The translations under genes were made by a program, and so were the position numbers. Source: Eledone cirrhosa (taxonomy: Eukaryota). Taken from it: 64,000 nt of DNA. This document shows positions 3,728 through 59,420 of the stretch, in pieces. Within the stretch, counting starts at the first letter, position 1. Every line of letters starts with the position of its first letter. Under the pieces are notes generated by a model that saw nothing but the letters and a program-made list of their open reading frames with translations, ran no database searches and was not told the DNA's origin. The DNA lies in the NCBI GenBank assembly GCA_964016885.1, contig OZ024765.1:1984001-2048000 (forward strand). The letters are read 5' to 3'.

Positions 3728-4360
3728 GTGGTGGTGGTGGTGGTAGTAGTGGTGGTAGTGTTGATGGTTGTAGTGGTGTTGATGTGGTGGTGGTCGTGGT
3801 GTCGTGGTGGTGGTGGTGTTGTGGTGGTAGTGTTGTGGTGGTGGTGGTGGTGGCTGTGGTGGTTGTGGTTGTAGTGGTGGTGGTAGTGTTGTGGTGGTGG
3901 TGGTGTTGATGTGGTGGTGGTGGTGTTGTGGTGGTAGTGTTGTGGTGGTGGTGGTGATGTGGTGGTGGTGGTGGTGGTGTTGTGGTGGTGGTGGTGTTGT
4001 GGTGGTGGTGGCGGCGGCTGTGGTGGTGTTGATGGTTGTAGTGGTGGTGGTAGTGCTGTGGTGGTGGTGATGTGGTGGTGGTGGTGGTGTTGTGGTGGTG
4101 GTGGTGGTGTTGATGGTTGTAGTGGTGGTGCTGTGGTGGTGATGGTTATGGTTATGGTGGTGGTGGTGGTAGTGGTGGTGTTGGTAGCTTCTATGGTAGT
4201 GGTGGTGGTGGTAGCTTCTATGGTGGTTATGGTGGTGTTGGTAGCTTCTATGGTAGTGGTGGTGGTATTGGTAGCTTCTGTGGTGGTGGTGGTGGTGGTG
4301 GTAGTGGTGGTGGTGGTGGTGATGTTGGTAGCTTCTATGGTAGTGGTGGTGGTAATAATG
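3728..4360. repeat. (GGT)n/(GTA)n low-complexity tract
   Basis: Seen directly; source of the poly-T/H/P/V ORFs. Confidence 0.95.
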
Positions 4361-6049: not shown

Positions 6050-6396
6050 GCAAAAGTTCTATTTAAATTGTTGGGATACAACAAGCAAATATTTTTATAA
6101 CTGATATAAATCACTCGACAAGTATTTGGAGTAGATATACGATATTAACAAATGGAAACTATATTTATAAAACCATATTTATTTCATTATACATATTTCA
6201 AGGATACCAAGTTAAATTATGGTATGCCTTCATCAGACAAAATACAATATATACCAGTTTTATAAATAAACATTGACGTACCCTTTCAAAATGCGCCCAT
6301 TACTTTTGGACGACATCAGTTATTTATAAAACGGGTATATATTGTATTTTGTCTGATGAAGGCATACCATAATTTAACTTGGTATCCTTGAAATAT
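6048..6396. mobile_element. Family B pLTR-like element with inverted duplication and hammerhead motif
   Basis: 6193-6269 is inverted at 6320-6396. Motif CTGATGA-AGGCATACCA...TGGTATCCTT-GAAA. Homologs at 11631-11950 and 52336-52564. Confidence 0.7.
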
Positions 6397-11630: not shown

Positions 11631-11950
11631 TGTAGAAGTTCTATTTAAATTGTTGGGATACAACAAGCAAATATTTTTATAACTGATATAAAGCACTCAA
11701 CAAATATTTGGAGTAAAAATACGATATTAACAAATGGAAACTATATTTATAAAACCATATTTATTTCATTATACATATTTCAAGGACACCAAGTTAAATT
11801 ATGGTGTGCTTTCATCAGATAAAATATAATATAGATCAGTTTTATAAATAAATATTGACATACCCTTAAAAATCTGGGAGCTTCCAACAGTAATGGTCGC
11901 ATTTTTTAAGGGTATGTCAATATTTATTTATAAAACTGATCTACATTATA
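11631..11950. mobile_element. Family B element with terminal inversion
   Basis: Homologous to 6048-6290; 11832-11871 inverted at 11903-11943; hammerhead motif on the minus strand at about 11775-11818. Confidence 0.7.
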
Positions 11951-12034
11951 TATAGAGAAAGAATAAAGACAGAAAGAGAGAATGAGAGGGAAAGAAAGAG
12001 AAAGAAAGAAAGAGAGAGAGAAAGAAAGAAAGAG

Positions 12035-12827: not shown

Positions 12828-12973
12828 ATATTATGTCCCCAAACATATATATATATATATATAGAGGAGGTTATAGTTCACTTGAAGCATTGTGTAATGA
12901 GGTATAAACGTTTGTATATGTATAATAAAGCCAAAACAATGCAGGAATGGACATAGAATAACCACTTTACTTC

Positions 12974-13008
12974 CCTCTGAAGAAGAGATATTATCTCGAA
13001 AATTAAGG
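12974..13008 (+). ncRNA. Minimal hammerhead ribozyme motif
   Basis: CCT-CTGAAGA-A-GAGATA(T)TATCTC-GAAA-AT-TA-AGG, lying between ~58-bp inverted repeats at 12903-12961 and 13071-13128. Confidence 0.6.
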
Positions 13009-13123
13009 ACATTTAAATAAATCTAAGGTAAAAGACTAATTGTCAACAATATCTTTTGCATTTGCATTCTTTATTCTATGTCCATACCTGCATTGTTTTG
13101 GCTTTATTATACATATACAAACG

Positions 13124-13215
<92 letters not shown>

Positions 13216-15066: not shown

Positions 15067-15123
<57 letters not shown>

Positions 15124-15189
15124 CTATATATACACCAACACTCGATCAACTTCGGACTCGAAGTTGATCGAGTGTTGGTGTATATATAG

Positions 15190-15243
<54 letters not shown>

Positions 15244-15246
<3 letters not shown>

Positions 15247-19050: not shown

Positions 19051-19459
19051 ATAACGAAGGAAGTGTGGTAAAGAACCAGGTGGACCATAACGCACCAGAG
19101 TACTCGATACTTTGGGTAGTAGAGTGGGTAATAGGAAAAGGTTCAGGCCCCCGACGGCAGAGCTGAAGCCGTTTCGACGGCTATTTCTGGTCCAGAAATA
19201 GCCGTCGAAACGGCTTCAGCTCTGCTGTCGGGGTCCTGACTCTTTTCCTATATATATATATATAACGAAGGAAATGTGGTAAGGAACCAGATGGACCATA
19301 ATGCACCAAAGTACTCAATACTTAGAGTGTAGAGTGGGTAATAGGAACGAGTAGGACCCCGACGGCTGAGCTCAAGCCGTTTCGACGGCTAATTCTGGAC
19401 TCAGAATTAGCCGTCGAAACGGCTTGAGCTCAGCCGTCGGGGTCCTACTCGTTCCTATA
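19051..19459. mobile_element. Two adjacent family A elements, each with a fold-back palindrome
   Basis: Copies at 19051-19251 and 19262-19459. Arms ATAGGAA...GTTTCGACGGCT / AGCCGTCGAAAC...TTCCTAT. Confidence 0.85.
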
Positions 19460-23970: not shown

Positions 23971-24155
23971 ATAGGAACGAGTAGGACCCCGACGGCTGAG
24001 CTCAAGCCGTTTCGACGGCTAAATCTGGACTAAAACGAAACGGCTTGAGCTCAGCCGTTGGGGTCCTACTCGTTCCTATTACCCACTCTACTACCCTAAG
24101 TATTGAGTACTTTGGTGCGTTATGGTCCATCTGGTTCCTTACCACATTTCCTTCG

Positions 24156-24158
<3 letters not shown>
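23971..24158 (+). mobile_element. Family A element with fold-back
   Basis: 23971-24014 is inverted at 24036-24079. Confidence 0.85.
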
Positions 24159-24196
<38 letters not shown>

Positions 24197-29220: not shown

Positions 29221-29434
29221 ATAACGAAGGAGTTGTGGTAAGGAACCAGATGGACCATAACGCACCAGAGTACTCAATACTTAGGGTAGTAGAGTGGGTA
29301 ATAGGAAAATGTAAGACCCCGATGGCAGAGCTCAAGCTGTTTCGACGGCTATTTCTTGACCAAAAATTCTATTTTAGTCCAGAAATACCCGTCGAAACGG
29401 CTTGAGTTCCACCATCAGGGTCAGGGTCATACAT

Positions 29435-29440
<6 letters not shown>
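29221..29440. mobile_element. Family A element with diverged fold-back
   Basis: Longer palindrome centre (TTTCTTGACCAAAA...TTTTAGTCCAGAAA). Confidence 0.8.
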
Positions 29441-44062: not shown

Positions 44063-44278
44063 AAATTAGAAATAGAATAGCTTTCACCGTATTTTTTTGA
44101 CTAAAGAAATTTTAGTCTGATAATGGGGCTTAGAACCCTCAGATAAATGGAAAATGATGAGTATTGATGTACATCAATACTCATCTTTTTCCTTTTATCT
44201 GAGGGTTCTAAGCCCCATTATCAGACTAAAATTTCTTTAGTCAAAAAAATACGGTGAAAGCTATTCTATTTCTAATTT
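44063..44278. repeat. Near-perfect 216-bp palindrome
   Basis: Centre GATGT|ACATC at 44170/44171; arms about 108 bp. Confidence 0.95.
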
Positions 44279-49593: not shown

Positions 49594-49860
49594 TATATAT
49601 ATATATACATATATATATTTATATACTTACACACACATATATATATATATACATACATGTATATAGGCATACACATATACAATAATATATGTATGTATGC
49701 ATATATATGTTTCTATGAATAAAATAAATTATATGCGAGAGGAAGACATGTCTAATTTTCTGAAGATGGAAACCAATTTAGAACAGCTCAGGGCCGTACT
49801 TACAGAGTATATATATATATATATACACACACACATATATATATATACACACATTTATAT

Positions 49861-49913
<53 letters not shown>

Positions 49914-49922
49914 TATATAAAA

Positions 49923-49953
<31 letters not shown>

Positions 49954-50002
49954 CATATATATATACATATATATATATATATACATACATATATATATAT
50001 AA

Positions 50003-50057
<55 letters not shown>

Positions 50058-50090
50058 CACATATACATATATATATATTTATACACATAC

Positions 50091-50255
<165 letters not shown>

Positions 50256-50280
50256 CACATATATATATATATATATATAT

Positions 50281-50458
50281 ATAGGAACCAGTAAGACCCC
50301 GACAGCTGAGCTCAAGCCGTTTCGACGGCTTAGCCGTCGAAACGGCTTGAGCTCAGCTGTCGGGGTCTTACTGGTTCCTATTACCCACTCTACTACCTCA
50401 AGTATTGAGTACTTTGGTGCGTTTTGGTCCACCTGGTTCCTTACCACATTTCCTTCGT

Positions 50459-50461
<3 letters not shown>
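50281..50461 (+). mobile_element. Family A element with perfect fold-back
   Basis: 50281-50381 palindrome centred on CGGCTTAGCCG. Confidence 0.88.
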
Positions 50462-50522
<61 letters not shown>

Positions 50523-50539
50523 AATATGTATATATATAC

Positions 50540-50612
<73 letters not shown>

Positions 50613-50629
50613 AATATATATATATATAC

Positions 50630-50660
<31 letters not shown>

Positions 50661-50996
50661 CATACATATATGCAGTATATATATATATATATACATATAT
50701 ATAAATATATATATATATATATAGAGAGAGTAATGTGATGAGATGGATGGAGCACACCGTTTCTAAATCTTAAGCCTCAGTCAAATGCCACGAAGAACGA
50801 CAAACTGTCTACGACCATCCAGAATCTCCCCGCCACTACATCCCAAGCAGATGTATAAAACATAGTATTTAAAAAGTACAGCATCCCTTTGAGTTATAAC
50901 CACAATAATGGTTTATTTAATTGAAACAAAATGGCGGAAATATGTAAAACTTTCCCAATGGTGATATTATCAGAAGGACATTATAAATCTATATAA

Positions 50997-52609: not shown

Positions 52610-53178
52610 CCGTTTCGACGGTGACTTTAGTCCAGAAATAGCCGTCGAAACGGCTTGAGCTCTGCCGTCAGGGTCGTTCATGTCTTTCTTAATGTTATTG
52701 CTCCTACTTAAGCTCGACTTCTAAATCATTTGCGTGTTCCATAAACTTCATCTTCGTTTTGTTTCTCAAGAATCTAGACAATATTTTAACCTGTAATCCA
52801 AGTTTCATTTCTGTTGCACCTCATCTCTCTCTCTCCCTCTCTCCTTCAACTCTCTCTTTCTCTCTCCCCCCATCTCTGTGATATTTGAATCTACTAAGAT
52901 TCCAGCTATTTGCACTATCGTATATTTTAGGGAATTGGCTGACCCAATGCTTTGCTTAATTGTTTTATTTATTTAAATTTTTTTTTTATTCTTTCTCTTA
53001 GACACCTGGTAATTTTTGAAAGCAAAGCATTGGCCCCTAGAATACTACAGTGGGCCCTGCAATGCTACCGTGGGCCCCTGTGGCTCACAAGTCACTGTGA
53101 CTTTAGTCCAGAAATAGCCTTCGAAACCGCTTGAGCTCTGCCGTCGGGGTCGTTCATGTCTTTCTTAATGTTATTGCT

Positions 53179-54101: not shown

Positions 54102-54168
<67 letters not shown>

Positions 54169-54170
<2 letters not shown>

Positions 54171-54366
54171 ACGAAGGAAAAGTGGTAAGGAACCAGGTGG
54201 ACCATAACGCACCAAAGTACTCAATACTGGAAGTAGTAGAGTGGGTAATAGGAACCAGTAAGACCCCGACAGCTGAGCTCAAGCCGTTTCGACGGCTAAT
54301 TCTGTCAGAATTAGCAGAATTAGCCGTCGAAACGGCTTGAGCTCAGCTGTCGGGGTCTTACTGGTT

Positions 54367-54371
<5 letters not shown>
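54169..54371. mobile_element. Family A element with fold-back
   Basis: 54248-54304 inverted at 54317-54371. Confidence 0.88.
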
Positions 54372-57796: not shown

Positions 57797-58120
<324 letters not shown>

Positions 58121-58467: not shown

Positions 58468-58680
58468 AGGTCCCGGGTTGAGTCGGGGATAACCACAGTA
58501 AGTAAGGTACTCAATACATGGCAGAGTAAAATTTTTTTATTTTATAGAAGGAGCTTCTACAGGACTAGTACTGTTTCATTCAGATGAAATCTTCAGGAAG
58601 CTTCCTGAAGATTTCATCTGAATGAAACAGTACTAGTCCTGTAGAAGCTCCTTCTATAAAATAAAAAATAAAAAAATATA
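58468..58680. mobile_element. Family D element forming a perfect palindrome with two back-to-back hammerhead-like motifs
   Basis: Centre GGAAG|CTTCC at 58600/58601; CTGAAGA-TTTC(ATCT)GAAT-GAAAC-AGTACTA-GTC on both strands. Confidence 0.8.
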
Positions 58681-59299: not shown

Positions 59300-59420
59300 G
59301 CATTTCTAAATGCTTTTCAAAATAATTTTGAGATAGAGCGTCCGTGATGTTTGCTCAGATCAGAGCAAACATCACGGACGCTCTATCTCAAAATTATTTT
59401 TGAAAAGCATTTAGAAATGC
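59300..59420. repeat. ~120-bp palindrome
   Basis: GCATTTCTAAATGCTTTTCAAAA...TTTGCTC / GAGCAAA...TTTTGAAAAGCATTTAGAAATGC. Confidence 0.9.

Follow-up and report, generated by a model that had tools for sequence, protein, structure and literature searches.

Inverted insertions in the (TA)n repeats of Eledone cirrhosa appear to be 5'-truncated copies of a Hydra-clade Penelope-like element, likely formed by twin priming at two hairpin-marked sites

Small inverted repeats lie within (AT)n microsatellites in a 64,000-nucleotide stretch of the Eledone cirrhosa genome (hereafter the window), and the copy at 50281-50461 raises the question of why its two arms rejoin the microsatellite at fixed points. 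This insertion has one arm of 50 bp and one of 132 bp, which overlap by 1 nt, and is set between two (AT)n-rich tracts (49806-50280 on the left and 50462-50722 on the right) that represent expanded remnants of the target. The short, tail-less arm (50281-50330, minus strand) ends at a UAU site, here called the short site, whose TAT is common to the left (AT)n tract. The long, tailed arm (50330-50461, plus strand) is the 3' part of a pseudo-LTR of a Hydra-clade element; its 5' truncation falls 32 nt ahead of the ribozyme cut site. Judged by the fold of the parent sequence, it carries the 3' half of a hammerhead ribozyme (50331-50366, plus strand), with the 3' strand of stem II, GAAA at 50339, stem III and the 3' strand of stem I; the 5' half was lost through truncation, and cleavage is predicted after GTC at 50359-50361. 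The long arm then reads through the short UAU site (50379-50381, plus strand, TAT continuing into TACCC) and ends at the long UAU site (50459-50461, plus strand). The 80 nt separating the two sites (50379-50458, plus strand) contain a decoy TAT at 50403-50405 and a first hairpin at 50387-50410 (plus strand), composed of ACTC, a 4-bp stem, a loop, a 2-nt bulge and GAGT. Beyond the long site the parent RNA continues with CTA and a second hairpin, which is absent from truncated copies and was located in the parent locus L062 at 3786-3807.

The sequence-only reading had described six copies of this family, family A, in which the inverted arm and the opposite end each stop at a constant sequence, and both descriptions held. 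The short arms end in TTCCTAT followed by (AT)n at 19251, 19458, 23971, 50281, 54371 and 58078, and the opposite ends are TTCGTTAT followed by (AT)n at 19051, 19262, 24159, 50461, 54168 and 57893. Besides 50281-50461, the copies occupy 19051-19251 (an older subfamily, long end left and short end right), 19262-19458 (in the (AT)n adjoining the preceding copy), 23971-24159 (short arm 20 nt further 5' than the long arm), 54168-54371 (whose junction carries a locally templated insert of 10 nt) and 57893-58078 (short arm 13 nt further 5'). A seventh inverted insertion, older and more diverged, was found at 29221-29438 and had been missing from that list.

Several other features of the window were recorded. 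Insertions were often nested, lying in the (AT)n into which another Penelope-like insertion runs out, as at window 19251-19262, at L062:1286 and 7240, and in the flanks of L005, L011 and L013. At 52626-52675 and 53102-53151, 476 bp apart, the family A ribozyme 3' half was followed by different downstream sequence; this pair is possibly a non-coding tandem relative of family A. Perfect palindromes at 44063-44278, 58533-58668, 59319-59400, 15069-15244 and 11824-11951 look like stumps of further Penelope-like families, and hammerhead-core motifs of other families were present at 2551, 18925, 24874, 25896, 43897, 44384, 58596-58605 and 11818.

A copy with sequence upstream of its arms (L006) gave a route to an intact parent in the genome. 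In L062 two (TA)n tracts enclose an inverted copy of 2.2 kb that terminates at the long site; it is followed by a partial repeat, the 721-codon ORF, 1.2 kb of 3' UTR and a short end. Owing to this 3' UTR the parent unit measured about 3.55 kb, and tandem arrays of the parent had a period of 3.53-3.55 kb. At least 150 ORF starts were present genome-wide at 94-100% identity, and many of the frames were open for about 784 codons. The Penelope layout, namely pseudo-LTRs from partial tandems, an inverted 5'-truncated copy and a tail, was seen in L062, in the arrays and in 16 large inverted copies. Arrays in which three to four full-length family A units follow one another head to tail were observed at C1:437200456-437211588, C2:320550971-320558598 and C1:91475988-91487154. 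At L062:3579-3872 the frame was also open for about 98 codons 5' of the ATG, across the ribozyme, the tail and both hairpins; an upstream start or a constraint is possible.

The 721-aa ORF carries the reverse transcriptase motifs QFDI and YRDD. Its structure was predicted with a pLDDT of 92.8 and gave telomerase TERT (3DU5) as the best structural match (E 2e-8), so the product is predicted to be a telomerase-related reverse transcriptase. Pfam and PDB sequence searches with the protein gave no match; 2,016 relatives were recovered, and one homologue matched GIY-YIG in Pfam (E 1e-5). The protein itself, which lacks a Pfam match, has a VIY-x12-YIG motif at residue 591. According to the accessible text of PMC8557442, the Hydra clade is defined by RWK, DKT in place of DKG, CxCX5C, CxxC and CxH flanking conserved E and N, and the lack of CCHH. 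In our ORF we found RWR at 37, SDKTG at 116 (DKT replacing DKG), CNCPDRSIC (CxCX5C) at 572, CNLC (CxxC) at 670 and CKH (CxH) at 698, and by eye no CCHH was present in the translation. Family A also shares the insertion into (TA)n that is typical of the clade. The unit of about 3.55 kb exceeds the general clade length of less than 3 kb, which we did not count as an exclusion because that source says 'generally'. On this combination of motifs, target and layout, the parent is best classified as a new and very active member of the Hydra clade, and the palindromes can be read as 5'-truncated head-to-head copies of it that retain the 3' half of the ribozyme. A non-LTR retrozyme origin was rejected because the family A stumps lack the ribozyme 5' half and derive from a coding parent.

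The unconstrained minimum-energy fold of the parent repeat was a type I three-way junction with the core UUGAGAA/GAA and a GUC site, and the pseudo-LTR repeat is thus predicted to hold a type I hammerhead with the U3-A8 core variant, a variant described in the available part of PMC4209133. An Rfam scan of the window and a generic inverted-repeat scan were both dominated by microsatellites, and the 150 Rfam matches listed did not include a hammerhead. At their 5' side most arms, solo or paired, stopped in a zone of loop II that lies 25-50 nt ahead of the ribozyme cut site. This zone was common to long, short and solo arms; examples are window 50330 and the solo copies L007, L010, L014 and L124, and an RNA barrier, a bound protein or a shorter template may be the cause. 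Ribozyme stem II was rejected as the centre of the palindromes, since the centres vary and lie mostly inside loop II.

To what extent the ends are fixed was determined from family A arms in 664 kb, made up of the 64-kb window and 600 kb of further sequence from two contigs. Among 71 arms, 33 met the (AT)n 9-14 nt past the anchor and 27 at 86-93 nt, so that 60 fell in two narrow peaks, and the remaining 11 ended elsewhere or were eroded. Exact-pattern searches of the 3.0-Gb assembly returned 17,741 short and 21,338 long ends, and the reversed controls returned 0. At tandem junctions the parent sequence continued beyond both ends (TTCC-TAT-TACCC and TTCGT-TAT-CTAG), the continuation past the long site being present in 28 of 30 loci. 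Because the parent RNA extends past both ends, both are internal UAU sites 80 nt apart, as the sequence-only reading had supposed, and the 80-nt difference between the arms therefore corresponds to the Penelope 'tail'. This tail sits on one of the two inverted repeats (PMC3846280; PMC8557442) and in vitro is bounded by two internal reverse transcription start sites (PMC11167929), as far as the accessible portions of these papers describe it. In an empty-site check of one locus in four contig sets, both flanks were never bridged by one contig, and target site duplications were illegible within (TA)n.

The proposed microhomology with the target recurred across families. When the segments lying between (AT)n runs were scanned de novo, 41 clusters of inverted inserts emerged. 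We scored the long arm's next bases as microhomology when they were in phase with the (AT)n after the short arm, using 25 family representatives. These stood for 23 clusters out of the 41, two of them entering twice; a further 11 had tails of 0-6 nt and were left aside, and seven doubtful ones were dropped by eye. At least 3 nt of microhomology was found in 17 of the 25 representatives against 1.03 expected, and in 18 of 32 once the seven doubtful clusters were restored by eye. Among clusters with short tails of 24-44 nt (for example window 12864-13125, L057, L079 and L056:1141), several also had TA microhomology and none had the hairpin described below; these are probably other Penelope clades with another signal.

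A UAU is not what selects the site by itself, because nearby TATs are rarely used. Two further TATs lie between the two ends of family A, within the same 80 nt, and about 1% of ends used them: (TA)4 starting within the 30 nt that hold both decoys was found in 183 forward-strand matches, many of them internal deletions (the reverse-strand count was inflated by nested matches).

What distinguishes the two used sites is the same structure downstream of each: RCUC, a short stem, a loop, a 2-nt bulge and GAGY. In family A, counting from the first base of the TAT, it begins 8 nt downstream at the short site and 6 nt downstream at the long site; in other families the insertion ends were mostly 6-9 nt before a hairpin, some farther. 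The hairpin was present in 10 of the 25 tails, mainly the longer ones, and absent in 15, compared with a mean of 0.06 in shuffled tails and 28 of 2,719 background windows. With a sequence-only pattern that demanded no pairing, applied to 34 clusters, the inner stem paired in 75 of 102 cells at a 2-nt bulge versus 34, 23 and 41 at bulges of 1, 3 and 4 nt, and covariation exceeded that in 500 of 500 shuffles. When printed consensus sequences were inspected by eye, the hairpin was seen in Hydra-2_Amil and Hydra-2_Ajap, twice in Hydra-1_Ajap (coral and sea cucumber) and partially in Hydra-1_Crog; it was not seen in the printed Hydra-1_Obim or Hydra-1_Amil consensus. A pattern search for a second hairpin 3' of the long ends gave one match in family C, a duplicate of the first hairpin, and none in family D, where read-through copies may be rare or diverged in both families. 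These data suggest that a hairpin just downstream marks each end site.

Two other families bear on this point. A second Hydra family, family Z (L126), has 45% amino-acid identity to the family A protein and two hairpins; the prediction that a further Hydra family would have two hairpins, with an end just ahead of each, had been set beforehand. Its ends were at a TAT 7-8 nt before each hairpin: 117 forward-strand matches entered (TA)n at the TAT preceding hairpin 1, and 8 of 43 matches stopped at the TAT preceding hairpin 2. A 9-nt alternating run lies between the two hairpins, and none of the arms listed entered (AT)n there. Family Z copies (L126:4380-4420, L173-L202) were also observed to start straight after a TA-rich run at a near-fixed point before the hammerhead, which has the core variant C-C-G-A, and their tail is about 165 nt. 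The family B inverted insertion (6050-6396) has canonical hammerhead cores at 6353 (plus strand) and 6236 (minus strand) and a hairpin in its long arm. Its right arm, at 6396, does end in GAAATAT followed by (AT)n as had been noted, but this does not add another case of a fixed end, because the family usually stops elsewhere, either 57 nt further (ATCG|TAT) or at the long end; the end at 6396 is an off-site or eroded one.

The two kinds of end were combined in a regular manner. Among 42 head-to-head pairs in the 664 kb, 33 were long plus short and nine had one eroded or unclassified arm; neither long plus long nor short plus short was found. In the young subfamily, a genome-wide count that took in short plus tailed and short plus short palindromes gave 3,441 of the former versus 18 of the latter. 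In the young set 2 of 31 pairs were long plus long, and one long plus long pair mixed two subfamilies. An 11-nt diagnostic block was identical between the arms in 31 of 51 pairs, against 8.5 expected. The extent of the arms was less regular. The short arm reached further 5' in 19 of 33 small pairs, and the arms had no overlap at all in three of the 33. Of 16 large inverted copies, which came from 27 loci hand-picked as long-looking and not at random, the short arm was longer in 10 (by 0.6 to more than 2 kb in eight), the tailed arm in five, and one was equal. Solo copies are known with the short end and with the long end. Later deletions in unstable palindromes could lengthen either arm relative to the other, and gene conversion could homogenise the arms.

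The junctions of 59 long plus short pairs comprised 30 with an overlap of 1-6 nt, six blunt joins, 22 with an insertion and one with a longer overlap. These joins, and arms differing by kilobases, do not agree with the suggestion that the two cDNAs are joined at a hairpin. Inserts were locally templated and sometimes iterated (window 54305-54314; L004, L015, L028 and L055). Inserts of this kind resemble the scars of polymerase theta end-joining, and those seen here would reflect repeated template jumps or polymerase theta-like scars.

Taken together, the insertion at 50281-50461 is a 5'-truncated head-to-head Hydra-clade insertion in (TA)n. It probably arose through twin priming on a single RNA, the two conserved hairpins likely setting the start points. 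This origin is favoured, and copying from one master or fold-back of a single cDNA disfavoured, because the centres differ, both arms belong to the same subfamily and each of the two can extend kilobases beyond the other. For the twin priming proposed by the sequence-only reading, the arm asymmetry, which favours two primings, the internal UAU ends and the differing centres now speak in support, and the priming step itself we infer. The layout, ends, hairpins and pairing are read from the genomic sequence, and the protein binding, dimer, priming and strand displacement in the following scheme would account for them. The putative GIY-YIG-type endonuclease of the element would cut (TA)n on both strands, with two copies of the protein present, one bound per hairpin. 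Each cut 3' end, ending in ATA, would pair with the UAU beside a hairpin and prime reverse transcription on uncleaved RNA. The trailing enzyme would displace the leading cDNA, which would allow the arms to overlap, and both cDNAs would often stop 25-50 nt ahead of the cut site, inside ribozyme loop II. Their 3' ends would then be joined via 1-6 nt of microhomology or short templated inserts and the second strands filled in. Where one of the cDNAs fails, the outcome would be a solo copy bearing either the short or the long end. Independent cDNA end points and microhomology joins, as expected of twin priming, are both indirectly apparent from the insertion structure; the poly(A) primer and variable internal site of the L1 type were not seen, both sites being internal and fixed.

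The genomic sequence fits primer pairing at UAU and endonuclease cutting at TAT in a DNA intermediate alike. In the latter case the ends would be cut rather than primed: the endonuclease would nick element DNA, either cDNA or a double-stranded intermediate, at TAT by the hairpins, the product would be joined to (TA)n, and the tail would stem from resolution of the intermediate by the endonuclease. TAT does resemble the (TA)n target, and single-stranded DNA can form the hairpin too. We nevertheless consider cutting unlikely, since in the in vitro study the tail was traced to two sites at which reverse transcription starts (PMC11167929, as far as its text was available), and independent 5' truncation together with solo copies of either end is simplest with two primed cDNAs. 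The reading nearest to the wording of the sequence-only reading, in which two separate RNA-protein particles prime the target ends independently and UAU microhomology alone fixes the sites, is very unlikely. The microhomology is real across families and one long plus long pair does have arms of two subfamilies, but independent choice predicts that at most half of the pairs are long plus short, the arms share a subfamily, and the decoy TATs and the longer alternating run are unused. The pairing counts contradict it unless an asymmetric dimer forces two RNAs into different registers.

In fold-back, or self-priming, one cDNA started at the long site would turn back and copy itself as far as the short TAT, jumping from there to the other target end; alternatively, self-priming would take place on an antisense template. 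Either course would by its nature yield arms of the same subfamily and long plus short pairing, the two arms of most small copies do end within a few nucleotides of each other, and palindromic junctions in rotifer elements were read as self-priming in the available part of PMC3846280. However, the tailed arm would have to contain the whole short arm, which fails in the 19 small pairs and 10 large copies counted above; eight large copies differ by 0.6 to more than 2 kb, most of them at 93-100% identity, three pairs have non-overlapping arms, and solo short-ended copies exist with kilobases upstream. Fold-back is also not needed to explain matched end points, since solo arms stop in the same zone. 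As the sole mechanism it is largely refuted, unless all of the longer short arms are later deletions, and we regard it as distinctly unlikely. Descent from one or a few pre-formed masters, as in a MITE- or SINE-like family, is extremely improbable. Some junctions recur, up to four times in 59, but 49 distinct junction types were found in the 59 pairs, in line with the expectation that no single pre-folded master exists; the same junction occurs in different subfamilies, and arm lengths are continuous up to the full element.

The reading we prefer, twin priming on one RNA, has a known counterpart in L1, for which it was reportedly described by Ostertag and Kazazian in 2001. In L1, as in our proposal, both nicked ends prime one RNA, the cDNA ends are joined by microcomplementarity with 5' inversion, and an internal duplication results once one cDNA passes the primer site of the other (bioRxiv 10.1101/2024.08.27.596794, in the portion available). 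L1 uses the poly(A) tail as one primer site and a chance internal site as the other, with overlap in a minority of cases, whereas family A has two internal sites at fixed, marked positions, combines them almost obligatorily, and shows overlap, and hence a palindrome, as the rule. The Poseidon element of Anolis resembles the proposal in that two internal starts bound the tail, both target strands are cut and extended, uncleaved RNA is the template, a dimer is predicted and a binding motif lies near the ORF start (PMC11167929, accessible text). Poseidon belongs to a different clade, its start sites are not homologous to the cut DNA and lie in an AC-rich stem-loop, and the accessible text does not assign the two start sites to the two arms of inverted copies.

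Members of the Hydra clade, including Hydra-1_Obim, are described in the available part of PMC8557442 as having, like family A, a single ORF with reverse transcriptase plus a GIY-YIG-like region at the C-terminus (a candidate one in family A), a hammerhead in the 3' repeat, (TA)n insertion and inverted 5'-truncated copies with a tail at one end, and the family A N-terminus resembles that of Hydra-1_Obim by eye. Compared with the families described there, family A differs in its length of about 3.55 kb (theirs mostly less than 3 kb), its tail of 80 nt rather than 30-40 nt, its U3-A8 core and its very high copy number; the twin hairpins and UAU microhomology seen in family A are not mentioned in the accessible text of that paper. 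The Penelope elements of Adineta vaga share head-to-head inverted pseudo-LTRs, a tail on one of them and palindromes at the junction, a layout ascribed to self-priming on an antisense template in the portion of PMC3846280 available; the arm statistics of family A argue against that as the main route. The type I hammerheads of Penelope-like elements in the accessible part of PMC4209133 share the 3'-repeat fold, the U3-A8 core and a palindromic loop III, and the predicted family A ribozyme differs by a longer stem III and a large loop II. The same source notes pairs of hammerhead motifs on opposite strands 100-700 bp apart.

From these accounts, as far as they were accessible, the Hydra clade and its targeting of (TA)n, inverted copies that carry one tail, a pair of internal starts in vitro and L1 twin priming are already known. 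The insertions are thus not the new route to palindromes that had been suggested, since their layout is the known inverted-copy-plus-tail arrangement of Penelope-like elements. The hairpins as a cis signal and the pairing rule are apparently undescribed. The literature search did not find RCUC/GAGY hairpins, UAU microhomology, obligate pairing or twin priming applied to Penelope elements; subscription papers such as the reviews of 2005 and 2006, Repbase reports and the supplements of PMC11167929 may hold some of this.

The accessible text of PMC8557442 names the origin of the tandem and inverted structures of Penelope-like elements, their one-sided tail and their microsatellite bias as an open problem. 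In family A the natural products number tens of thousands, intact source copies that are nearly identical are plentiful, and two cis signals have been mapped precisely, so that the question of mechanism becomes a short in vitro experiment. The family also accounts for thousands of small perfect palindromes and nested insertions in the TA repeats of this genome. If only the known parts hold, family A is an ordinary yet very active Hydra-clade family. A wider reading, which we hold tentatively and a little short of even, is a programmed twin priming of the Hydra clade, in which two tandem bulged hairpins, kept from coral to mollusc, would each dock one enzyme subunit and present a 3-nt UAU to one (TA)n end. 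If true, it would explain in general how the Penelope 'tail' and the inverted copies arise and would place a telomerase-like alignment step in a retrotransposon, and the hairpin-plus-UAU unit could serve as a portable signal through which any upstream RNA would be written into TA repeats.
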